Positions 5,994-58,985 of a stretch of 64,000 nucleotides of DNA are shown in pieces. The translations under genes and the position numbers were made by a program. Below the pieces are notes generated by a model that saw only the letters and a program-made list of their open reading frames with translations, ran no database searches and was not told where the DNA came from. Numbering within the stretch: the first letter of the stretch is position 1; each line of letters opens with the position of its first letter. Origin of the DNA: Minisyncoccota bacterium (GTDB lineage: Bacteria; Patescibacteriota; Minisyncoccia; Phycocordibacterales; JABAAK01); contig OZ244939.1 of assembly GCA_965222235.1 (NCBI GenBank), forward strand, positions 323,396 to 387,395, written 5' to 3'.

Positions 5994-6529
5994 GCACTCC
6001 TAATGTTACTGTATGTGGGATAATAACACAAGGGGCTGGTGGCGGGATATTGTGGAAAATGTCCACCCACTCCTATCAATACTCAAAAAAACATACATGG
6101 GCCGAGGGTTAATCAAAAGCATTCAGAAGCGTCGTTGTCTTGAGCAAATCGGCATCAATCCCTCTAGATATCAGACAATTATTGTAATATGTGTGCCATA
6201 CCTTGGTTTTATACCATGTTCCTTCCTTTCTGTTTTCGGCACAAGATATTTGAACTGCTTCGGACACATCATCCTCACTGCAGGTGAGGGTATTGAAGTG
6301 ATGTATTGCCGCTTTTGTGCTGAAATTCGCGCACAAAGCAGCTACCGAAGCCAGTCTAATTTCATACCACCAAAAGATACCGATACCACTTAAATGAGAA
6401 CACGGTTTCCCGCTTCATTCACAATATACCGCATATATAAAACTGTGCAGATACACAATAACGAGCCCCCCTGCACACAGATGCGTACAGGGGGGGCAAA
6501 GCCCACGAAAAACGGGCTCGGACGAATCA

Positions 6530-7366
6530 TCAGAGGCCGAACGGGATTCGAATTTCGGCAGTCGCCGAAAGCTCGTCCTCCAAATCATCAGGCATGAAGG
6601 CGTTCGTGACGCTTGCGCCGACCTCAAAGTGGTTGAACGCGTGCCGTATCGAAACACCGACCCGGGGCGTGAGGTCGTCATCATCGCCTTCCGAAAGATC
6701 AACGGTGCCCAGAGAGGTCTTGGCCTCGTTGCTGAGCTCCTTGTCCAGATGCCCACTGATACGGAACGAGGTCGTTTCTCCCAGAGCGAACGCGTGAGTT
6801 GCCGTCACACCGACGCTCGTTCCGGAGAATGACTTGATCTGCGGAAACGGATCGTCGGCATACTGGTAGGCGATGCGGGCATAGATGTTCTTGTGCCCCG
6901 CTTCCCCGTAAATGCCCATCGAATCGATGTCGTCAAGGGTCCGCTTCATGCCCTTCTTGAACCCCACCGCCACGTTGGCGAAGAGATCCTCAAACCCAGG
7001 ACCGGAGGAATTGATGCCGAGACCGACATTGACGTATGACGGATCGCCGTCAACGGCGGGAAAACCGCTGACCTCATGCTCGGCAGACACAGCAGCCCCG
7101 GCATTCCCGAACACGGAAAACGTGTCGTTCAGACCGAAAATGACGGTGCCGCTGAGACCGGCGTTGTGGTAGTCCTCCGCGAAAACGGTTGAGGCACCGA
7201 TTGACCCCCGGCTCTCAGTGCCGGTACAACCGCCTTCATAGCCGGGGATGCCGGGAAAAACAGCGAGACCGTCGTGTCCGGCAACCGACTGATCGTCAGC
7301 CAAGGCTGCCGTCCCCAGGGAACAGAACAGCACAAGAGCCGTCGAAACCGCGAGTAAGTGTTTCAT
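6530..7366 (-). CDS. Secreted Gly/Ser/Thr-rich protein with signal peptide (MKHLLAVSTALVLFCSLGTAALA), alternating-hydrophobic beta-strand pattern and an aromatic C-terminus; possibly beta-barrel or porin-like
   Basis: Signal peptide, no internal TM helix. Stretches such as GVSIRHAFNHFEVGASVTNAF look amphipathic-beta. The protein ends ...IRIPFGL. Confidence 0.5.
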   Translation of the reverse strand: MKHLLAVSTALVLFCSLGTAALADDQSVAGHDGLAVFPGIPGYEGGCTGTESRGSIGASTVFAEDYHNAGLSGTVIFGLNDTFSVFGNAGAAVSAEHEVSGFPAVDGDPSYVNVGLGINSSGPGFEDLFANVAVGFKKGMKRTLDDIDSMGIYGEAGHKNIYARIAYQYADDPFPQIKSFSGTSVGVTATHAFALGETTSFRISGHLDKELSNEAKTSLGTVDLSEGDDDDLTPRVGVSIRHAFNHFEVGASVTNAFMPDDLEDELSATAEIRIPFGL

Positions 7367-8794: not shown

Positions 8795-10045
8795 CTATTG
8801 AAACAGTGTGATAACCCGCTGCGCACCGTCCTTGGCCGACATCGTCCCCACGACAACCCCCCGCAACACAACGAGCAGCGTCTGCCGCTCTGCCGCTGTC
8901 AGATAAATGCTTTTCGCGGAAAAAAGCGAGTCAATGAAGGCGGTTTCGGTGGTCCCGGCATCGGCGGCCGGGTAGTAATTCTGTATGGCCGGCGGTATGT
9001 TGTCAAACAGCACCGGCAAATTATTGTCCTCCCCGTAGAGCACTCCCACGAAATCAATCGCGGCGTTCAGCGCTGGGGTCGGCACCCTGCTCCGTTTCGG
9101 TATCGTGAAGCCGTAGAGCACCGCCGGCGACACCGGCGCGCTCTCCCGGGAAATCTGCGGCAGAGGCAGCGCCCGTATCGGTATGGTGTCCCCGCCGGCA
9201 CGCTTAAGCCCGCTGAACTCACTGATATAGCCGGGATAGAATAGGAGACGGCCGCTCACAAACATATCGCGGGCATCATCCAACGCAACGCTCCAGGTGA
9301 AAACCGGCGACCGGGTGTTCGCAAAACCGGCATAGAACCGCAGTATATCCGCAGCCGCATCAACGGTCAAACTGCCGGCCGCTGCCGTCTGCAGCATCAG
9401 GGCGATAAACACATCTGTTGCGTTGTCGTAATTGCGGTACGCGCCGAGCGGCACCAGCGCCCGGTTTGTCTCCCGATATCGCTTAATGGAACTGCGAAAA
9501 CTCTCATGGCCGAAATGCTCCCACAGTGACGGAAGCGCGCGTATCCTGCTCTGCAGCCGGAGCGCTTCGTTGTAGTAGAGCACCATCGCGTCCGAGAGAA
9601 ACGGAATGGCGATGTACCCGTCAGGTCGTATAAAAATATCGGCGTTCAGGGTGAACTGCTGCTGGTACCGCGCCAGGGGCAGATACCCGTACGGCACGGT
9701 CTGCAGCGTCTCCTCCAGCTCAAGAATCGTCCGATGATCAAGCAGCAGCAAATCCGGATGTTCGCTCACCGCAATCGCCTCAATATATTCATCCCGTACC
9801 GTTGCCGGATTCTTATGCACATAGGTCATGCTGTTATACGAGCGGTTGGGATTCCGGTTCAGCTGGCGGAGAATCGGCTGCATCCGCTCTTCGCTGAGCA
9901 GCCCCCACACCTGTATATCCGGTTTCACCGCCTCCTGCTCCGGATCTTTCTGCAGGAAACCGTACAGCGCCAGCCCGCCGAAACCGACAACAACGAAGAG
10001 ACCGAACACCGCATAGAGAATAATTTGAAATACATTTGTCTGCAT
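8795..10045 (-). CDS. Membrane-anchored extracytoplasmic protein (416 aa), function unknown; possibly solute-binding-like
   Basis: N-terminal TM helix IILYAVFGLFVVVGFGGLALYGF followed by a large soluble domain. No diagnostic motif was recognised. Confidence 0.5.
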   Translation of the reverse strand: MQTNVFQIILYAVFGLFVVVGFGGLALYGFLQKDPEQEAVKPDIQVWGLLSEERMQPILRQLNRNPNRSYNSMTYVHKNPATVRDEYIEAIAVSEHPDLLLLDHRTILELEETLQTVPYGYLPLARYQQQFTLNADIFIRPDGYIAIPFLSDAMVLYYNEALRLQSRIRALPSLWEHFGHESFRSSIKRYRETNRALVPLGAYRNYDNATDVFIALMLQTAAAGSLTVDAAADILRFYAGFANTRSPVFTWSVALDDARDMFVSGRLLFYPGYISEFSGLKRAGGDTIPIRALPLPQISRESAPVSPAVLYGFTIPKRSRVPTPALNAAIDFVGVLYGEDNNLPVLFDNIPPAIQNYYPAADAGTTETAFIDSLFSAKSIYLTAAERQTLLVVLRGVVVGTMSAKDGAQRVITLFQ

Positions 10046-24199: not shown

Positions 24200-24311
24200 G
24201 TTCTGGCGACGAGCTACTCTCCCGCATAAGCAGTACCATCGCCCCTGGAGGACTTAACTTCCGTATTCGGAATGAGAACGGGTGTGACCCCTCCGGTTTC
24301 ATCACCAGAAC
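24200..24311 (-). rRNA. rrf: 5S ribosomal RNA
   Basis: Reverse complement reads GTTCTGGTGATG...CCGTTCTCATTCCGAATACGGAAGTTAAG...GGGAGAGTAGCTCGTCGCCAGAAC. Helix I pairs. Ends are within 3 nt. Confidence 0.8.
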
Positions 24312-24384
24312 AAAAAGGCGGAATATATTTTCCGCATAATATCTATTGCAATAACCATGGGCAATTCTAACGAAACAGAACGCC

Positions 24385-27358
<2,974 letters not shown>

Positions 27359-30092: not shown

Positions 30093-30166
30093 GGGCCCGT
30101 AGCTCAGTTGGCTAGAGCGCCGGTTTTGCACTCCGGAGGTCGCAGGTTCAAATCCTGTCGGGTCCA
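30093..30166 (+). tRNA. tRNA-Ala (anticodon UGC)
   Basis: Full cloverleaf: acceptor GGGCCCG/CGGGTCC with the G3:U70 Ala identity pair, D-arm GCTC/GAGC, anticodon loop TTTGCAC, T-loop TTCAAAT and discriminator A. No encoded CCA. Confidence 0.9.
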
Positions 30167-30592
30167 CTCTACAGTACAAATAGGTACACCCTCCCTGTCG
30201 GTCGGATGTGACTTGTTCGTGGTGCGTCGTTTCGGCACGTCATAGGGGGCTTTCCAGCCGTTTCTCGGTTTTTCATCTCTCACAGAGTTAAATATTTAGT
30301 ACTTTAATTTATACTTCCATACCTATTTGCAAAGAATAAATAAAGCACCCCACCAGCGCAACCATAGAGTAAAGCCCTATGAACTGATGGGGTGCTTCAA
30401 AAACTTTACCTATACCTATGGTTGCTTTTATAGTATATGATAAAAACACTTTTTGTGCATTCAAATTTAATTTTTTGTAGACAGGTTTCTTTTGTCATCA
30501 TCTTTTTGCTATACTATCAATAGCAACCAAAAGTATCGCCCGACTATCATATGGGAATATCCCATATTGTTAGTAAGATAATTAGGTGGAAT

Positions 30593-51839: not shown

Positions 51840-51858
51840 ATATATAGCGTCTGCTGCT

Positions 51859-51930
51859 GCCGGACCAGGGCTCGAACCTGGATTAACGGGACCAAAACCC
51901 GTCGTCCTACCAATTAGACGATCCGGCATG
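51859..51930 (-). tRNA. tRNA-Gln (anticodon UUG)
   Basis: 72-nt cloverleaf TGCCGGA-TC-GTCT-AATTGGTA-GGAC-G-ACGGG-TTTTGGT-CCCGT-TAAT-CCAGG-TTCGAGC-CCTGG-TCCGGCA-G. A U1:A72 first pair as in E. coli tRNA-Gln. Confidence 0.85.
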
Positions 51931-51963: not shown

Positions 51964-52398
51964 TCACCCCCAGACAAAACGACTCCCGACAGACACACCG
52001 AACCGACGCGCAAAACCCGCCGGTACCTCAAGCACATACCGCGCGGGAAACGGAGAAGTGAATGTCCCGGGAAATGATTCGGGAGAAACATCCTCCGCCA
52101 GATGCACTACCTGTTTCCCGGCATCAAGCCATAAGATATCAATTGAAAAATACATATCTTTCATCCAGATGGAGTGCGGACCGTCATGCGGAAATACAAA
52201 CAGCATGCCGCATGTGTCACACAGCGATTCCCGGTGCGACAGACCGAGCGTGCGCTCCTCGGGAGTCAGCGATATATCCGCGTGTATGGCGATATCACCA
52301 AAAAAAATCTCAACCCGGGAATCGTGCGGCAACCGGAACATGACCGCGACAATCAGCAGAAGGGCGAAAAGGATGAGCGGAAGAACACGGACTGTCAT
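51964..52398 (-). CDS. DUF192 family protein (COG1430-like)
   Basis: N-terminal TM helix. GLSHRESLCDTCGMLFVFP, IWMKDM, SIDILWLD and YVLEVPAG fit the DUF192 consensus. Confidence 0.6.
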   Translation of the reverse strand: MTVRVLPLILFALLLIVAVMFRLPHDSRVEIFFGDIAIHADISLTPEERTLGLSHRESLCDTCGMLFVFPHDGPHSIWMKDMYFSIDILWLDAGKQVVHLAEDVSPESFPGTFTSPFPARYVLEVPAGFARRFGVSVGSRFVWG

Positions 52399-52784
52399 AC
52401 CGTGCCGGCACGCTGCGCAAGCGACAGCGCGCATGAATTGATGCAGTACCGCTGACCCGTGGGTGTCCCCGGCGCGTCATCAAATACATGACCCAGATGC
52501 GCGCCGCACGCGCCGCAGGACACCTCGGTCCGGCGCATACCGGCGGAATCGTCCTGTTTCAGGGACACCGATCCGTCTTTGACGGCTGTGTAGAAACTGG
52601 GCCAACCGGAGTGTGAATCAAATTTCGCGGACGAATCAAACAGCGGCGAATTACAGACAATGCAGTGATACATTCCGTCATCTTTTGTTTTGTAATACGC
52701 ACCGGTGTACGGCGGCTCGGTGGCCCTCTCCTGCGTCACCCGATACGCCTGTTCGGACAGCTGCTCGCGTAAATTTTCATTCAT
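52395..52784 (-). CDS. msrB: Peptide-methionine (R)-S-oxide reductase
   Basis: CxxC...GWPSF...CGACGAHLGHVFDDAPGTPTGQRYCINS (SelR/MsrB signature with a zinc-binding Cys4 site). Confidence 0.85.
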   Translation of the reverse strand: MNENLREQLSEQAYRVTQERATEPPYTGAYYKTKDDGMYHCIVCNSPLFDSSAKFDSHSGWPSFYTAVKDGSVSLKQDDSAGMRRTEVSCGACGAHLGHVFDDAPGTPTGQRYCINSCALSLAQRAGTV

Positions 52785-52794
52785 ATATACACCA

Positions 52795-53265
52795 CTATGC
52801 CACGGAAGAAGTGCTTTGTTTCCGAAGATACTGCTGATGGTATTCCTCCGCCGCAAAGAACGGGGATGCCGGAACGATATCCGTCACAATCGGATCGTCG
52901 TGCATGCCCGATTCCTCAAGCAGCCGCCTGGACGCGAGAGCGGCCTCCCGCTGCGGCTCGGTGTGATAGAAAATGACGGAGCGGTACTGCTCTCCCGCAT
53001 CAGGTCCCTGGCGGTTCGGCGTCGTGGGGTCATGCATGTCCCAGAACACCCGCAGCAATTCGTCATATGAAACGACATCGGAATCATACATCACCTCAAC
53101 CGCCTCGCGATGCCCCGTGCCGCCGGCGCATACCCGCTCGTAGCTCGGACTGTCAACAGTACCGCCGGTGTACCCCGCCCGGGTCCGTATGACACCGGGG
53201 GTGTTCATAAAGGTGTCCTCAACACCCCAAAAACAGCCGGCGGCAAATGTCGCTTTTTCTTCCAT
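52795..53265 (-). CDS. msrA: Peptide-methionine (S)-S-oxide reductase
   Basis: [12 protein letters not shown] active site, GYTGG and [19 protein letters not shown]. Confidence 0.85.
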
Positions 53266-53287
53266 ATATATGCAGTATAGACAACAA

Positions 53288-53320
53288 AAAGGACTGTGCG
53301 GCAGATATCGCACAGTCCCT
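53288..53320 (-). terminator. Rho-independent terminator or attenuator immediately upstream of msrA
   Basis: 10-bp stem GGACTGTGCG / CGCACAGTCC followed on the minus strand by TTTTTGTTGT; only about 23 nt then separate it from the msrA ATG. Confidence 0.45.
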
Positions 53321-53336
53321 GTGTATTTCAGCGGCT

Positions 53337-53474
53337 CGGTTTTTTCGGATGCAGGTTCCGATGGCCGGTCTGCTGGTATGTTCGTTGTCGTCGCTCTTAG
53401 TGACCCGGTCTTTTCGGGTGCAGATTCCGATGCCCGGTTTGCCGTTGTGTTCGCCGTCGTTGCTTTTTTTTACG
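53337..53474. repeat. Imperfect tandem direct repeat (about 69 bp x2, roughly 75% identity)
   Basis: CGGTTTTTTCGGATGCAGGTTCCGATGGCCGGTCTGCTGG... and CGGTCTTTTCGGGTGCAGATTCCGATGCCCGGTTTGCCG... It overlaps the 3' tail of ORF A and ends in a T8 run. Confidence 0.6.
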
Positions 53475-53786
53475 AATCACTTTTGAGCTGCGGGCGAACG
53501 CATGGTGTTCGCACAACACCCGGACATGGTGGGGCCAACAGGTGTTCCGGTCATACCCCTTTTCCGGAAATACAAAAAATGCGGTCTCTCCCCCTCCCCT
53601 CTGTTTGCCGCGCTCGGAATGCAGAACCCATTCCAAAAAATCAAACGGCAGGTTCTTCCAGGAAAACAGGACCGGAAGCCGGACAGTGCGCATGGTTTTC
53701 TTCTCACAGCCCGGATGGTCGCAGCGGAATGTGCAGGAGAACAGCACGGGAAAACCATTCCCCTCATCAAACGATACAACTCTCAT
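53397..53786 (-). CDS. Cys/His-rich small protein A (paralog of 54882-55157), hypothetical
   Basis: Strong Shine-Dalgarno [26 protein letters not shown]...PFDFLEW...FFVFP...CWPHH...CEHH aligns with B (RCKCDHNGCGKTATRKTVR...PFFYW...FYLFA...CAEH). A low-complexity basic tail follows. Confidence 0.55.
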
Positions 53787-53858
53787 TCGCCTCTCCCCTT
53801 GGTATGAAGTTGAGTCTGCCTCCAGTATACCAAAATTCCGGACAATTCGGTAGGTGGT

Positions 53859-54820
53859 CTTAATGGTTCAATACATTTGCACATGAGTGTACCACATCTA
53901 TGGGTTTCTTAAGGTCAATGCCGAAATGCGGTCTCTCATGGTTGTAATGATGGAGGTATTGGGCGTATTGTTCTCTGAGATCGTCATATTCTTTGAAAGG
54001 AGCCTTGTAGTAGATGAACTCCTCCTCATCAGTCCTGAACGATCGTTCAATGACGGCATTCTCGTTAGGACTTGATTTGTGAATATAGTGGTGTTTTGTA
54101 CAGAGAGCAGTTACATGGGTATGGAATCTTTTTTGAAATTCAAGACCGTTATCCGTTTGGATGAATACTGTTCTGAAGGGTAGACGGTTCACTATTTCCG
54201 TCATAGCTGAAATGGCATTATTCTGATTCAGATCATTGTATATGACGGCATCCTTGTATCGGGAGTAAATGTCTATGATGGCATACTCGAAACAGGTCCA
54301 GGGCAATCCTGTCAATTCAGGGGTGAGGTACTTCACATCCATCTGGAGGTAGCCGACGGTTTCAGCGTTCTTTGCGTGCATATGTACTGTATTCTGACAC
54401 AAGGGACGACGATGTCGCTTCTTCTGTCGTATGTAGCCACGGGCTATCAGGAACCGTTTCACCGTACTTACTGATACCGCTATACCGGTTTCCTCCCTGA
54501 GTTTCTCGGCACACCATCCCCGTTTCTGCCTCATTGCCGCAATGACTACTCTTTCCTCCCCGGAGAGTGCCGGTTCCCTCAGTCTCTTCGGTCTCGTGCT
54601 CTTCCGCTGCAGTCCCCGCATGACATACCGCGGTTCCCCGTAGGGATACGGTGACCGTGCCCGTCTCAGCCACCGGGATACCGTGGTTCTGTGGATACCG
54701 AGCAGTTCAGCAGTATGCTGTATATCTCTTGTTTCTTTGTATATTTGAATGATTTTCTTGGGATGTTGTCTCATACATCTGCAGTATCGCTGCTATGTGC
54801 AAATGTATTGAACCATTAAG
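53859..54820. mobile_element. IS481-family insertion sequence (962 bp) with 26-bp perfect terminal inverted repeats and a 6-bp target-site duplication GGTGGT
   Basis: Left inverted repeat CTTAATGGTTCAATACATTTGCACAT (53859-53884) is the exact reverse complement of the right one (54795-54820). GGTGGT sits at 53853-53858 and 54821-54826. There is a single transposase ORF. Confidence 0.8.
53860..54774 (-). CDS. IS481-family transposase (HTH plus rve/DDE integrase core)
   Basis: N-terminal HTH (ELLGIHRTTVSRWLRR) and a DDE core (...IQTDNGLEF...NAVIERSFRT...). 304 aa. The stop lies inside the left inverted repeat. Confidence 0.8.
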   Translation of the reverse strand: MRQHPKKIIQIYKETRDIQHTAELLGIHRTTVSRWLRRARSPYPYGEPRYVMRGLQRKSTRPKRLREPALSGEERVVIAAMRQKRGWCAEKLREETGIAVSVSTVKRFLIARGYIRQKKRHRRPLCQNTVHMHAKNAETVGYLQMDVKYLTPELTGLPWTCFEYAIIDIYSRYKDAVIYNDLNQNNAISAMTEIVNRLPFRTVFIQTDNGLEFQKRFHTHVTALCTKHHYIHKSSPNENAVIERSFRTDEEEFIYYKAPFKEYDDLREQYAQYLHHYNHERPHFGIDLKKPIDVVHSCANVLNH

Positions 54821-54881
54821 GGTGGTGCAAGAAAAGTGCCGCACACAGTACTGTGCACGGCATCTATATACCCCGAATGTA

Positions 54882-55157
54882 TCAGCGGTGCTCGGCGCAA
54901 TAGGCGCTGACACCGTCAGGAAAATAGTGCACATCCGTGGCGAAAAGGTAGAAGGGGTTCCTGCCGCCGGCAAAAACCTTCTGCCAATAGAAGAATGGCA
55001 TGCGGGGTTTTGAGACACTTGTCCGCATCCTGCCGGTTTCGCGGTCATAGTGATATCGGACAGTTTTCCGTGTTGCTGTCTTGCCGCAGCCGTTGTGGTC
55101 GCACTTACAGCGGATTTCCTTCCGTCCGTCGGGCAGTGTCCGCACTGATACCGTCAT
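54882..55157 (-). CDS. Cys/His-rich small protein B (92 aa; paralog of A)
   Basis: Strong Shine-Dalgarno GGAGGAGG then ATG 55157. It lies in the 421-bp gap between the two IS elements. Confidence 0.6.
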   Translation of the reverse strand: MTVSVRTLPDGRKEIRCKCDHNGCGKTATRKTVRYHYDRETGRMRTSVSKPRMPFFYWQKVFAGGRNPFYLFATDVHYFPDGVSAYCAEHR

Positions 55158-55241
55158 TGCCTCCTCCGTCGGTTGTGAAAAACCTAACCTAATATATATT
55201 GTACAATATAATAAAATATTGTCAATGCTCTCCTGTAATGT

Positions 55242-56237
55242 GCAAGGACATATTGCACCCCCAGCGGTAACATATCCAGTAATGACGATATATATGCCCC
55301 AAACATCACAAGAAGAACGATGGCGGTGGATCCGCCCCATTATCACGAATGAGCTGACCTACGATCAGGTGCTGCGCATGTGTCCGCACAGTAGGAGAAC
55401 TCTGAAATATTGGGTTTCCCGTTATCGTGATGAGGGAGAGGGTGGATTGGTGCCGCGCAGCACCAGACCGAAGCGGAGTCCGGAAAGGACTTCCGAAAAG
55501 GTGCGGAAACAAGTCATCAGAAAAAGAAAGGAAACAGGATTCTGCGCGAAGAAACTGCACTGGCGTCTGGAAAAGGAAGGACTGTCAGTGCCGGTGCGAA
55601 CCATCGGGAAGATACTGAATGATGAGGGATTGGCCAGAACCTACCGAAAAAGAAAAACACGGTACACCTACCTGCCACGGGTATGGATGCCGGGAGATAT
55701 GGTGGAGATTGATGTGAAGCATGTCCCCCAAAAGATTGAAAACAGAAGGTATTTCCAGTACACCGCCGTTGACCTGGGAAGTAGGTGGCGGCTGCTTGAT
55801 GTCTTTGAGGAACAGTCATCACGGAACTCCGTCCGGTTCCTTGACCTGTTCAGAACAGTGTTTCCTGTACCGGTTATCAGTGTGAAAACAGACAATCACA
55901 GCACCTTCACCAATTACTATGTCGGTTCAAACAAACGATCCGATATGACCGTGAAAACACTCCACCAGCCGGATGTCTACTGTAGAGAGAATACCATCAT
56001 CCACTATCTCATTGACCCCGGGAAACCGACTCAGAACGGCACCGTTGAACGAAGTCACCGCGAGGACAATGAGAAGTTCTACCGAAAAAACACCTTCTCT
56101 GATTTCTCCGATCTGCAGAAAAAACTCCGTGTCTGGAACGACACCTACAACGACCTTGAGCACTGCTCCTTAAACGGAAAAACTCCCAATGAAATGCTAC
56201 AATTATTGCAACCGCAAGGGGTGCAATATGTCCTTGC
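55242..56237. mobile_element. Second, distinct IS481-family insertion sequence (about 1.0 kb) with 20-bp terminal inverted repeats
   Basis: GCAAGGACATATTGCACCCC at 55242-55261 is the reverse complement of 56218-56237. The transposase ORF fills the element. No clear target-site duplication was identified. Confidence 0.6.
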
Positions 56238-56241
56238 CTAA
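55282..56241 (+). CDS. IS481-family transposase (second element)
   Basis: HTH (YDQVLRMCPHSRRTLKYWVSRYR) and a DDE core (VKTDNHSTF...GTVERSHRED). An alternative ATG lies at 55294. Only distantly related to the first transposase. Confidence 0.75.
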   Translation: MTIYMPQTSQEERWRWIRPIITNELTYDQVLRMCPHSRRTLKYWVSRYRDEGEGGLVPRSTRPKRSPERTSEKVRKQVIRKRKETGFCAKKLHWRLEKEGLSVPVRTIGKILNDEGLARTYRKRKTRYTYLPRVWMPGDMVEIDVKHVPQKIENRRYFQYTAVDLGSRWRLLDVFEEQSSRNSVRFLDLFRTVFPVPVISVKTDNHSTFTNYYVGSNKRSDMTVKTLHQPDVYCRENTIIHYLIDPGKPTQNGTVERSHREDNEKFYRKNTFSDFSDLQKKLRVWNDTYNDLEHCSLNGKTPNEMLQLLQPQGVQYVLA

Positions 56242-56252
56242 AACACTTTCGG

Positions 56253-58985
56253 TTACCGCCGTGTGCCGCTGAAGGTAAGCCGCTCCTGGGGATGCAGGTC
56301 GCGGCGGCGGAGAAATACCGCCTTGACGATCTCAATAATTACCACATGGAATAGCGCGCTGACGGGGATAATCCAGTACACCCACACCGGCAGCGGCACG
56401 AGCGACAGGGCCTGCGTGAGCGGCGGCACCATGAACGCCAGAATTAAAATAACAATACTTACCGCCACCGCCACCGTCAACCAGCGGTTGCTGAACGGGT
56501 TGGTGGTAAACACGCTCTTGCCCAACTGGCGGAGCGAGAAGGCGAGAAAAATGGAATCAACGGACACGGCGATAAACATAACGGTCTGCAGCTGCTCCTG
56601 AGTCAATGAGGTGAATGAGGAGAGCAGTCCGTAAATGACCAGCAGAAACGCGCCCGTAAACATCGCGAGCACGATGATGCCGGTCTGCACATCCCGCCCG
56701 ATGATGCTGTCCCCCTTCTCCCGGCGCATGTACCGCACGTTATCACCCCGCTCAAATGCGAATGCAAACGCGATAAATGCTTCCTCAACGATATTCGCCC
56801 AGAGAATCTGCACCGGCGTGATTGGCAGCGCCGCGGACATCAGAAGACCGCCGGCAACGAGAATCGCCTCGCTGAACGAGGTGGAAAACAGATATATCAC
56901 AATCTTCTTCAGATTCTGAATGATCTTCCTGCCTTCAATGATGGACGCAGTGATGGTTGAAAATGAATCTTTCAGAAGAATCAAATCGGATGATTCCTTC
57001 GCGACATCGGTGCCGGAAGCGACCGCAATGCCGATAGAGGCGTGGTGCAGCGCCGGCGCGTCGTTCACACCGTCGCCGGTCATGGCGACCACCTCCCCGT
57101 TCGTCAGAAGCACCCGTAACAGATGGGATTTCTGATCGGGCAGCATGCGCGCGAAGACGCGGACGGTCTGCGCCTTCGCAAAAAGTGCGGTGTCACTGAA
57201 CCCGCGAATGTCATCGCCCAACAACACTTCCTCCGAATCGCCGTCGGCAACAATACCGCACTGCTTCGCTACATACAGCGCCGTATACTTGTTGTCACCC
57301 GTCACCATCGTGAGCGCAACATGCGCCCTGCGGATGTAGTCAACGGATTCGGACACATCGGCGCGAATGCCGTCCTCAAGGGAAAGAAATGCCACGAACG
57401 AAACGGCATGCACCGATTCGCTCACCTGTTGATAGTACGCATGCTCATCTGTCTCATCAGTCATATCGGCCGCGACCTGCGCCGAGCCGACGGCGATGAC
57501 ACGACGGCCTTTTTCGGTCTCGGCGACAAGAGCCTGTTTCAACTTTTCACGCTGCATGGTGGTGAGCGTGACCGTCCGTCCGTTCTGCTGCACCATCGTC
57601 GACTCCGCAAGAATATGTTCGGGAGCGCCGACGGCGTAGTAGCGAAGCCCTCCGCCCTGTTCACGGACAATGGAAGAAGAGCACCGTTTTGACGATTCAA
57701 ACGGGGTATAGAATATGCGACGATCGCGCGTCGGCGACACCGTGCACACATCCTCACATGCCGTCACGAGCGCCTGTTCTATGGACGAACCGGTGAGCAC
57801 GGTATCCGCTTCTTCCGATTCTTCCCGGTGCAGCCGTTTCCCGTCCGTCGCCAGATACGCCCCGAGCACAATGGAACGGCCGAGCGGCGATATGGTGCGG
57901 TCATCGACACGCTCGCGTGTGTCGGCGGTAATAATCTCAGAGAGTGTCATGATACCGTTTGTCAGCGTCCCCGTCTTGTCGGTCAGAATCCAGGTCGTGC
58001 TGCCGAGCGTCTCGGCGGCGAGCATATTGCGCACCAATCCGTTATGACGCAGCACCGCCTGCATGCCGATAACCAGCACCACCGTAATCGCCGCGGGCAG
58101 TCCCGACGGAATGCCGGCGATTGCGATTGCGATGGATGTGATGACAATTTCAACAAGAGGAATGCCCTGCAGCAGGCCGATGGCGACAATACCGAGCACC
58201 GCGATCATAACCAGAATCATGATCCACTGCGCCATCTGCTGTATCTGCAGATACAGCGGCGTCTTGGTCCCCTCAGCATGCAAGCCGGTGACAATGGAGC
58301 CGATTGCGGTCTGGGCACCCGTATGCACTACGATGCCCCGCCCGGTGCCGGTAATGATGGTGGTCCCTTTCCATACCATATTGGCCTGATCGGCAAAGTC
58401 CCGCCTGTTTACGAGTGTGATTGCCTGTTTATGCACCGGCACCCATTCACCGGTGAGCGCTGACTCGTTAATCTGTAAATTATGCTCCTCAAGAATGCGG
58501 ATATCCGCCGGCACCTGATTGCCGGCATCAAAGAGCACGATATCCCCCGGCACCAGCCGCTCCGCCGGCAGCTCAACCTTCCTGCCGTCCCGCAGCACCT
58601 GCGCATACGACTGCCGGGCGTCTCTCAGCAGCTCAAAAGCGCGGGACACCTTCTCCTCCTGCAGCAGCGCGACGACCAGATTAATAATGAGCGCGGCGAA
58701 CACGACATACGCGTCCAGCGTGTAGTTGATGAGATAGAGGATGACGGCCGAAATGAGCAGAATGGACACAACGGGATTCTTCAACTGCGAAAACAACCGG
58801 CGGATCCGGGTGAATCGCCGCTCATGCCGGAACATATTGGCGCCGTATGAAAGGAGTCGCCGCTCTGCTTCGGCGGTGGACAGTCCCCCTTCCGATGAAT
58901 GGAGCATGTCCAGGACCTCCTTACCGGATCGCTCGGCAAAGGTGTGTGAAAAAGAAGATGTTGTGTCAGTGGAGTCAGGTTTCAC
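56253..58985 (-). CDS. Cation-transporting P-type ATPase (P2-like)
   Basis: The N-terminus ...GLSTAEAERRLLSYGAN is typical. ILTDKTGTLTNG phosphorylation site, MTGDGVNDAPALHHASIGIAV hinge, TGEWVP, and about 10 TM helices. Confidence 0.85.
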   Translation of the reverse strand: MKPDSTDTTSSFSHTFAERSGKEVLDMLHSSEGGLSTAEAERRLLSYGANMFRHERRFTRIRRLFSQLKNPVVSILLISAVILYLINYTLDAYVVFAALIINLVVALLQEEKVSRAFELLRDARQSYAQVLRDGRKVELPAERLVPGDIVLFDAGNQVPADIRILEEHNLQINESALTGEWVPVHKQAITLVNRRDFADQANMVWKGTTIITGTGRGIVVHTGAQTAIGSIVTGLHAEGTKTPLYLQIQQMAQWIMILVMIAVLGIVAIGLLQGIPLVEIVITSIAIAIAGIPSGLPAAITVVLVIGMQAVLRHNGLVRNMLAAETLGSTTWILTDKTGTLTNGIMTLSEIITADTRERVDDRTISPLGRSIVLGAYLATDGKRLHREESEEADTVLTGSSIEQALVTACEDVCTVSPTRDRRIFYTPFESSKRCSSSIVREQGGGLRYYAVGAPEHILAESTMVQQNGRTVTLTTMQREKLKQALVAETEKGRRVIAVGSAQVAADMTDETDEHAYYQQVSESVHAVSFVAFLSLEDGIRADVSESVDYIRRAHVALTMVTGDNKYTALYVAKQCGIVADGDSEEVLLGDDIRGFSDTALFAKAQTVRVFARMLPDQKSHLLRVLLTNGEVVAMTGDGVNDAPALHHASIGIAVASGTDVAKESSDLILLKDSFSTITASIIEGRKIIQNLKKIVIYLFSTSFSEAILVAGGLLMSAALPITPVQILWANIVEEAFIAFAFAFERGDNVRYMRREKGDSIIGRDVQTGIIVLAMFTGAFLLVIYGLLSSFTSLTQEQLQTVMFIAVSVDSIFLAFSLRQLGKSVFTTNPFSNRWLTVAVAVSIVILILAFMVPPLTQALSLVPLPVWVYWIIPVSALFHVVIIEIVKAVFLRRRDLHPQERLTFSGTRR

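Follow-up and report, generated by a model that had tools for sequence, protein, structure and literature searches.

The described elements closest to those analysed here belong to the IS481 family of insertion sequences (IS), the prototype of which was found in Bordetella pertussis; IS481 itself begins with TGT and targets NCTAGN. An outward promoter of this element, Pout, drives the neighbouring genes katA and bteA (PMC6161684). The small proteins encoded beside the elements resemble described systems locally: their C-x4-C knuckle with the sequence PGCGK-x-A is similar to the EsV-1-7/WRKY19 cysteine-rich motifs and to the KLF/Sp C2H2 fingers, and the tails of some of their relatives recall the peptides that bind the beta sliding clamp, for which the consensus QLSLF has been used (PMC3971601).

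The locus lies within a 64-kb stretch of DNA that was analysed as a whole (hereafter the window), about 87% of which is coding, with about 39 short gaps. Two insertion sequences, designated IS1 and IS2, are interleaved there with a pair of small genes, A and B, between the gene of a P-type cation ATPase and msrA. The coordinates of all features are given in Table 1.

Table 1. Features of the locus, by position in the window.
Feature	Position	Strand	Details
msrB, after msrA	52395-52856		
msrA, conserved on the right of the B/A pair	52795..53265	-	
Intrinsic terminator downstream of A	53289..53320	-	12-bp stem then TTTGTTG; terminator scan
Two tandem 69-nt copies	53330..53467	-	78% identical
Gene A, divergent paralog with a basic tail in the small zinc-protein family (putative)	53397..53786	-	129 aa; ribosome-binding site GGGGAGAGG
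IS1 target-site duplication, left copy	53853..53858	.	GGTGGT
IS1, IS481-like insertion sequence	53859..54820	-	962 bp; perfect 26-bp terminal inverted repeats
IS1 transposase T1	53860..54774	-	304 aa; DDE triad D146/D208/E243
IS1 target-site duplication, right copy	54821..54826	.	GGTGGT
Intrinsic terminator of B	54837..54862	-	11-bp stem then CTTTTCTT
Gene B (P0001), core-only member of the small zinc-protein family (putative)	54882..55157	-	91 aa; ribosome-binding site GGAGGAGG
Sigma-70 promoter of B, near-consensus	55198..55225	-	TTGACA, 16 nt, TACAAT; 11/12 positions
IS2, IS481-like insertion sequence	55242..56237	+	996 bp; no target-site duplication
IS2 transposase T2	55282..56241	+	319 aa; DDE triad D144/D204/E256
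P-type cation ATPase, conserved on the left of the B/A pair	56253..58985	-	

Structure of the Insertion Sequences

The arms of IS1 (53859-53884 and 54795-54820) are 100% complementary over 26 nt (26/26), while a shuffled-sequence control for this inverted repeat gave 0 matches. Since GGTGGT directly abuts both ends, the element is flanked by a 6-bp duplication, and the pre-insertion sequence reconstructed in silico reads ...GCACTTTTCTTGCACCACCTACCGAATTGTCC... An exact scan of the genome contig collection for the IS1 inverted repeat returned 0 matches and no empty site from a close relative, and no further copy of either IS1 or IS2 is present in the window. Within IS1, the Logan contigs of sample ERR13605531 break at 54791 and 53888, in each case 30 nt from the end of the element, and a 962-bp unitig (L027) is identical to exactly the interval 53859-54820. 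These breaks, together with the recovery of IS1 as a contig of its own, are the signature of a repeat at k=31 and show that the element occurs in at least two contexts in the sample. IS2 was assembled straight through in the same sample and thus has one context. With its perfect inverted repeats, intact duplication and more than one context, IS1 looks like a recent insertion, and it is apparently an active, still mobile, multi-copy element.

The arms of IS2 (55242-55261 and 56218-56237) match perfectly over 20/20 positions and extend to 27 nt at 93% identity (25/27; 55242-55268 and 56211-56237). Neither plausible end of the element is flanked by a visible target-site duplication. An extended terminus beginning with TGT (55234-56245) was considered and rejected, since only 4/8 of the added positions pair and the flanks carry no clean duplication. 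We infer that IS2 is an older copy, present in a single context.

The catalytic triads of both transposases, located by motif and by the alignment of T1 with T2, are intact; the second D and the E are separated by 35 residues in T1 and by 52 in T2, and the two proteins are 27% identical. The stop codon of T1 lies within the inverted repeat of IS1 and its transcription runs towards A, while T2 is divergent from B and ends with a TAA stop codon 2-4 nt past the right inverted repeat of IS2. The best NCBIfam match of T1 and T2 is the IS481 model, which is covered end to end (positions 5-283 and 2-283 of 284, respectively) with 159.5 and 190.9 bits against a curated cut-off of 224; the runner-up, IS3, scored 79.6 and 55.5 bits. 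The rve and rve_3 domains of the transposases exceed the Pfam thresholds, as does the IS481 leucine-zipper domain in T2. All nearest annotated relatives of the two proteins are IS481 family transposases, with about 30% identity, and each protein is the sole member of its own 90%-identity cluster.

Both elements share with IS481 a length of about 1 kb, terminal inverted repeats and a single DDE (rve) open reading frame of about 300-320 aa, which reaches or passes the end of the element; the 6-bp length of the IS1 duplication is a further likeness. However, T1 and T2 score below the NCBIfam curated cut-off and share only about 30% of their residues with any annotated relative, the ends of IS1 begin with CTTAATGG and its duplication is GGTGGT, whereas IS2 has no duplication and differs in the 52 residues from the second D to the E. 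The host also differs, as it appears to belong to a Patescibacteria lineage and is probably Paceibacteria-like, with a small genome. The preliminary description of this DNA had recognised two distantly related IS481-type elements, a recent insertion of IS1 with perfect 26-bp repeats and a GGTGGT duplication, and an IS2 with 20-bp repeats and a transposase divergent from B; on re-alignment, all these features and coordinates were reproduced, the common best match to IS481 and the low mutual identity of the transposases agree with the first statement, and the separate unitig agrees with the second. IS1 and IS2 are two new and very divergent IS481-type elements from a lineage with tiny genomes, and are otherwise routine.

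The Family of Genes A and B

The A and B proteins are 25% identical (E 1e-4) and have the C-x4-C and C-x2-H motifs in common. When both A and B were left out of the family profile, a search with it among 1,254 ORF fragments of the window recovered B with an E-value of 3.5e-30 and A with 3.7e-10. A and B are true paralogs, and the shared motifs noted earlier in these Cys/His-containing small genes are real. The earlier statement that they fall into no recognised family also stands: searches of both proteins against Pfam and NCBIfam yielded no match and no model. Across the whole family, these databases gave only sub-threshold matches to Zf_WRKY19 and EsV_1_7_cys, and one family match in PHROGs (E 0.0022) was to a family of unknown function.

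A set of 1.84 billion representative proteins contains 12 clusters of the family. A word-indexed homolog search with B found only B itself, and with A it found nothing; a search with the family alignment retrieved only 5 proteins. The degenerate pattern MG...CDHxGC...YW matched 12 times in genome contigs, the true matches being only those at loci L005 and L006, 0 times in viral contigs, and 12 times in metagenome contigs, where all matches were false. Homologs were also found on three short contigs (L029-L031), too short to reveal neighbours. The family is thus rare and unannotated, and was found here only in Paceibacteria-type genomes and metagenome contigs.

The AlphaFold model of B (pLDDT 88.4) predicts a fold of seven strands and one helix with a CX4C...CX2[H/C] site, in which the knuckle follows strand 2 and the C-x2-H motif follows the last strand. 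Residues C19, C24 and C87 are invariant across the family, and position 90 is occupied by His in all members except A', the A homolog of locus L006, in which the final His is replaced by Cys to give CxxC. Exchanges of His for Cys are typical of zinc ligands. We infer from the sequences and the model that the family probably binds zinc via a putative CCC[H/C] site. A Foldseek search against the PDB gave no match with an E-value below 1, and neither the PDB nor BFVD contained a significant structural neighbour or a convincing fold relative. The similarity to known zinc knuckles is weak, with matches to Zf_WRKY19 in 3/13 members (best E 0.0014), to EsV_1_7_cys (E 0.0022) and to KLF4 chains (E 0.013). 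In contrast to those motifs, the C-x2-H/C pair of the A/B family lies about 60 residues further on, past five more strands and the helix; the predicted fold is neither a C2H2 nor a treble-clef finger, and no zinc-knuckle model reaches its threshold.

Comparison with Related Loci

On the Candidatus Pacebacteria chromosome OY282360.1 (locus L006), the gene order ArgRS-ATPase-B'-A'-msrA-msrB is identical to that in the window, and no IS is present. This genome is only about 60% identical to the window at the protein level, with 60-64% for the flanking proteins (about 60% for ArgRS and the ATPase) and 42% for B and B'. A' is an ortholog of A, with 29% identity (E 3.5e-15) and the same length, position and basic tail. 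The layout of promoters and terminators is also the same, including a similar promoter of B. The presence of the same gene order without IS indicates that the B/A pair is ancestral and that both IS came later.

At locus L005, another paralog of the family lies between the genes of SerRS and a prepilin peptidase, with no IS. Locus L030 contains a family member, a tRNA 3' end and a promoter, again with no IS. At locus L002, the family member P0010 has an IS30-family element upstream, which ends 66 nt from it. Its transposase scored 217.2 bits against the IS30 model NF033563 (cut-off 80), and a 12-bp perfect inverted repeat, AAAGTACACACC, is present at 8846-8857 and 9923-9934, for which about 0.002 chance matches would be expected; the element showed neither a canonical start codon nor a duplication. 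The position of this element, equivalent to that of the IS in the window, hints at more than tolerance of insertions. An adjacent IS is present in two of the genomes carrying the A/B family and absent from two.

Position of the Insertions

In the window, IS1 lies directly after the T-tract of the B terminator; one of its ends is 61 nt past the B stop codon and the other 72 nt upstream of the ATG codon of A. IS2 ends 15 nt from the ATPase stop codon on one side, and on the other 84 nt upstream of the B start codon and 16 nt from the B promoter, which is intact. The palindrome ATATTGTACAATAT overlaps the -10 element of this promoter; it was considered as a possible operator and rejected, since it is not conserved at L006, where only the extended -10 element TGTACAAT recurs, upstream of A', and it was counted as part of the promoter.

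The explanation that we regard as probable is that an ancestral tandem B/A pair, encoding small, basic and presumably zinc-binding proteins, between the P-type ATPase and msrAB was entered later and independently by two IS481-type elements, and that their clustering reflects tolerance, the small genes being neither cargo nor regulators. IS2 would have landed between the ATPase stop codon and the -35 element of B, and IS1 between the B terminator and the promoter of A, so that each IS would occupy the sole dispensable DNA available. In compact genomes, the gap from an upstream terminator to a -35 element is almost the only place where an insertion survives. The location of the IS in dispensable gaps would explain why A and B retain their ribosome-binding sites and terminators, and B also its near-consensus promoter. 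Insertions could persist here beside fast-evolving, probably non-essential monocistronic genes of a tightly packed genome. What counts against tolerance is that two independent IS are found in adjacent gaps, for which the chance is about 5% within the window and would be lower across the genome should it have few IS.

Less likely, although deserving serious consideration, is a genuine insertion hotspot, in which the DNA just upstream of A/B-family promoters attracts several transposase families, or insertions are positively selected because they change expression. The attraction could be exerted by an AT-rich near-consensus promoter behind a terminator hairpin, or by a DNA-bound protein, and the change of expression could result from read-through of T1 transcription into A or from an IS481-type outward promoter at the left end of IS2 reading into B. 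Measured from the start codons of A, B and P0010, three elements of three lineages end at similar distances upstream (72, 84 and 66 nt, respectively), two of the three lie directly after a terminator hairpin, the IS30 identity of the element at L002 is firm (217 bits against the cut-off of 80), and no other IS is present in the 64-kb window or in the 20-kb L002 locus. The documented outward promoter of IS481, which drives neighbouring genes (PMC6161684), makes an effect on expression conceivable: T1 points in the same direction as A and no terminator separates the two, T2 is divergent from B, and the location of both elements just upstream of intact promoters would be analogous to the Pout arrangement, with an outward promoter facing a neighbour. 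However, no recognisable hybrid -35/-10 pair was found at the junction of IS1 and A, and B keeps its own promoter.

Moreover, an adjacent IS was found in only 2/4 genomes and in 3/6 genes with context, numbers too small to tell targeting from tolerance. L005, both genes of L006 and L030 have no IS, and the window, having been picked for its IS, is not an independent test. The constant distance of 66-84 nt is explained by gap geometry, because an insertion into a gap of 100-140 nt can leave the preceding gene and the promoter undamaged only at this position. No sequence is common to the three flanks. The AT-skewed target suggested in the preliminary description fits the AT-rich site of IS2, but not the IS1 duplication GGTGGT, which is GC-rich. 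Tolerance of insertions beside an ancestral pair is the explanation that we prefer.

Possible Link to the Sliding Clamp

The C-terminal ends of several relatives carry short motifs, namely QLSLF in P0008 and P0013, QLFLF in P0004, RLSLF-COOH in P0002, and QLSLW-COOH in L031.

Such tail-end motifs of the B-type relatives resemble the peptides of beta-sliding-clamp-binding proteins (QL[SD]LF), and the tails that bear them are otherwise unconserved and disordered-looking. Clamp-binding motifs are usually located at the end of such tails. One could speculate that the A/B family is a new class of Patescibacteria DNA-replication-associated factors, whose beta-rich fold would be stapled by zinc and whose ancestral tether to the clamp would be the C-terminal QLSLF motif, and that the promoter-proximal DNA is a family-specific landing site for several IS families, possibly since transposases also use the clamp, which would make the association with IS mechanistic. 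We consider this improbable. The motif is absent from A and B themselves, B having no tail and A a basic one, and we know of no clamp partner with a zinc domain of the A/B type. If either the clamp link or the targeting of IS were confirmed, the result would point towards the replication biology of organisms of which hardly any have been cultured.

Status of Gene A and the Cargo Hypothesis

It is quite doubtful that A is a decayed duplicate or a chance ORF, with B as the only functional gene and the IS gathering in debris, even though several features of A could be read in this way. The A protein is absent from a collection of 15 billion proteins; neither the 10-residue Y-x-R-x-T-G hairpin nor the PFPYW motif is present in it; its AlphaFold model is less confident (pLDDT 78) than that of B; and a stop codon lies within the tandem duplication of its tail. 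The absence of A from public protein sets is explained by the calling of an antisense 197-aa ORF in its place. Against decay, the distant genome of L006 has kept the ortholog A', which matches A in length, position and basic tail; a profile from which A had been left out detects A with high significance; and A is intact in its Cys ligands, ribosome-binding site and terminator. A is a real gene, yet one that is missing from public protein sets.

Concerning the tail, the proximal of the two 69-nt copies codes for the basic C-terminal tail of A, and the distal copy continues in frame past the TAA stop codon. These repeats were not reported by Tandem Repeats Finder, and an Rfam scan of the locus with E-values up to 1 gave no match, so they are not a known RNA.

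Finally, it is highly improbable that A and B are accessory genes of the IS (cargo or regulators, as the preliminary description had suggested, or target-selection factors) travelling along with them, as their adjacency in the window and at L002 might suggest, because both genes lie outside the inverted repeats and A outside the IS1 duplication, the 962-bp repeat unit of the assembly graph leaves both of them out, the three associated transposases come from different lineages, and similarities of fold and profile do not rise above noise (no Foldseek match in the PDB with E<1). The family profile matched residues 220-248 of T1 with 13 bits, which was judged to be due to chance (i-Evalue 0.024). 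The B'-A' pair at the same chromosomal position of L006 with no transposase, along with the IS-free locus L005, rules out the idea of cargo or regulators.

Two divergent IS481-type elements beside genes A and B

A pair of small Cys/His genes, A and B, is flanked by genes of a P-type ATPase and msrA-msrB, with one insertion sequence (IS1) between B and A and another (IS2) beyond B. The preliminary description of the region was confirmed, the coordinates and inverted repeats of both elements and the GGTGGT target duplication abutting IS1 on both outer sides all being reproduced. The 26-nt inverted repeats of IS1 occurred in none of 100 shuffles. No direct repeat was found at the ends of IS2, including with shifted boundaries, and neither element has a second copy elsewhere in the 64-kb window.

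Coordinates of the elements, genes and regulatory sites in the window
Feature	Position	Strand	Size	Remarks
A	53397-53786	-	129 aa	
Terminator of A	53320-53289	-		
IS1	53859-54820		962 bp	Inverted repeats 26 nt, 100% complementary
T1 (IS1 transposase)	54774->53860	-	304 aa	TAA stop within IS1 inverted repeat
B	54882-55157	-	91 aa	
Terminator of B	54862-54837	-		
B promoter	55198-55225	-		TTGACA-16-TACAAT, near-consensus (11/12 positions)
Promoter-like site	55173-55200	+		TTGTGA-16-TATATT, back to back with and overlapping B promoter, toward IS2/T2
IS2	55242-56237		996 bp	Inverted repeat 20 nt perfect, 27 nt at 93% when extended
T2 (IS2 transposase)	55282->56241	+	319 aa	TAA stop 2-4 nt past right inverted repeat
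rRNA/tRNA (listed together)	24201-27349	-		
	30093-30167	+		
	51856-51928	-		

Each element carries a single ORF, T1 or T2, with an rve-type integrase domain and the DDE residues (D146/D208/E243 and D144/D204/E256, respectively). The best NCBIfam match of both is IS481, covered over the whole model with 159.5 (T1) and 190.9 (T2) bits, which is under the curated cut-off of 224 bits, versus 79.6 and 55.5 bits for the IS3 model. T1 and T2 are 27% identical to each other; their closest annotated relatives, from plasmid records, are IS481 family transposases with ~30% identity, and each is the sole member of its own 90%-identity cluster among ~15 billion proteins. IS1 and IS2 are new, divergent members of the known IS481 type. 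In the public annotation, the IS2 transposase spans 55225-56241 (+; 338 aa), with an ATG at 55225 outside the left inverted repeat; alignment to the family model supports the predicted internal start at 55282 instead.

In sample ERR13605531, whose Logan contigs match this locus, the contig carrying ATPase-IS2-B ends at window position 54791, 30 nt into IS1, the contig with msrA begins at 53888, 30 nt into the opposite end, and IS1 forms its own contig of exactly 962 bp. This is the pattern expected in a k=31 graph for a repeat with at least two different flanks, and therefore IS1 is present in multiple contexts. Simple presence/absence polymorphism would give the element plus 30 nt of flanking sequence at either end, unlike the contigs seen. 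Together with the perfect inverted repeats and the duplication, this indicates that IS1 was probably active recently, in line with the age first proposed for it. IS2 was assembled straight through and has no duplication; it is a single-copy, probably older element. Elsewhere, the window carries 23S and 5S rRNA genes without a 16S gene (an unlinked arrangement), as well as tRNA-Ala(TGC) and tRNA-Gln(TTG).

An undescribed family of small proteins

A and B had been described as paralogs of no recognisable family, and both statements hold. The two proteins share 25% identity (E 1e-4); their paralogy is real, since a profile built without either of them recovered both from 1,254 window ORF fragments (B, E 3.5e-30; A, E 3.7e-10). 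Neither matches Pfam or NCBIfam, and when 1.84 billion representative proteins were searched exhaustively by HMMER, with A and B aligned as the query, only 12 proteins were retrieved, which have in common the pattern MGV...G...C-D-H-P-G-C-x-K-x-A-x-R...Y-x-R-x-T-G...P-F-P-Y-W-R-K-V-F...F-x-L...W-P-x-x-V...C-x-x-H. A is missing from a public collection of ~15 billion proteins because gene calling chose a 197-aa antisense ORF in its place (window 53168-53863 (+); Logan contig L032, 26-619); a conserved A ortholog exists nonetheless. This undescribed family of small, putatively zinc-binding proteins is a more interesting by-product of the analysis than the insertion sequences.

A scan of species-representative genomes with a degenerate DNA pattern of this family gave two true loci, L005 and L006. 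In L006, on a 724-kb Candidatus Pacebacteria chromosome, the genes for ArgRS, P-type ATPase, B' (6032-6376), A' (6497-6898), msrA and msrB follow exactly the order of the window minus strand, with no transposase in the locus and with the same regulatory layout (promoter, B', terminator, promoter, A'). Because this order is kept without the elements, the tandem B-A pair is ancestral and chromosomal, and both elements are later arrivals. Identity to the window is 60% for ArgRS and ATPase, 62-64% for MsrA and MsrB, 42% for B/B' and 29% for A/A' (E 3.5e-15). In L005, part of a 662-kb chromosome of Candidatus Paceibacterota, a further paralog lies between the genes for SerRS and a prepilin peptidase, with no insertion sequence at the locus. 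The synteny points to a probable Paceibacteria-type host for the window, and the unlinked 23S-5S rRNA arrangement is compatible with this.

The AlphaFold2 model of B (13-sequence alignment) is confident (mean pLDDT 88.4), with seven strands and one helix; that of A is less so (pLDDT 78); it lacks one hairpin relative to B, and its basic tail is helical. C19, D20, G23, C24 and C87 are invariant in the family, and position 90 is His in every member but A' of L006 (Cys). This residue pattern suggests a putative structural zinc site, CX4C...CX2[H/C], stapling the C-terminus to the first hairpin. Foldseek found no match with E < 0.3 in PDB and BFVD, and only the 'PGCGK-x-A' knuckle shows similarity at the sequence level, to Zf_WRKY19, EsV_1_7_cys and KLF fingers (E 0.001-0.02).

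Several B-type relatives (P0002, P0004, P0008, P0013; L031, 77-420) have tails with QLSLF, QLFLF, RLSLF-COOH or QLSLW-COOH ends, and an F-E-D terminus after or near these motifs. They resemble the bacterial sliding-clamp-binding consensus, QLSLF being the consensus beta-clamp-binding peptide (PMC3971601). B of the window has no tail, and those of A and A' are basic; a link to the clamp is no more than a lead. In L031, an in-frame TAA stands exactly where the W-P motif has its conserved Trp, and the frame then runs on to the QLSLW end; this homolog may be a pseudogene, or the stop may stem from an error in sequencing.

A and B are basic (pI 9.8 and 10.6), and B has a strong ribosome-binding site. 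A perfect palindrome, ATATTGTACAATAT, spans the -10 of its promoter. A tandem duplication of 69 nt (78% identical; 53330-53467, minus) was found at the end of A: the first copy encodes the A tail, and in the second the same frame continues beyond the TAA stop, which may represent a decayed repeat of a His-rich or basic tail or else a read-through extension.

Insertion next to members of the family

The window is ~87% coding, with ~39 gaps of at least 30 nt, and two unrelated elements in adjacent gaps would be expected by chance within it at ~5%, which is mildly improbable. We favour, as the somewhat likelier explanation, that insertions would be tolerated beside fast-evolving, probably dispensable monocistronic genes, because IS-free family loci, motif-less flanks and gap geometry speak against a specific mechanism. 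Genuine targeting, in line with the preferred target first proposed, or a selected regulatory insertion, is the main alternative and appears less likely. It draws on an independent case, an IS30-family element of 1,089 bp (L002, 8846-9934; 12-bp inverted repeat; transposase score 217 bits, family cut-off 80) that ends directly after a terminator hairpin, 66 nt upstream of the family member P0010, compared with 72 nt from IS1 to A and 84 nt from IS2 to B in the window. However, L005, both L006 genes and L030 are free of insertion sequences, no motif is common to the three flanks, whose composition also varies, and where a gap measures 100-140 nt, an insertion can leave both neighbours intact solely between the upstream terminator and the -35. 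The earlier suggestion that A and B are cargo or regulators of the elements is ruled out by the syntenic, transposase-free L006 locus. The L002 transposase has no canonical start codon, and the element together with a 296-aa ORF of unassigned function accounts for 2.3 kb of inserted DNA that the syntenic L005 lacks.

The insertions could plausibly affect their neighbours. Judging from gene orientation, T1 transcription might read into A, and an outward promoter, as reported for IS481 (PMC6161684), might by analogy face B. In the opposite direction, the plus-strand promoter-like site may feed chromosomal transcription into the IS2 transposase.
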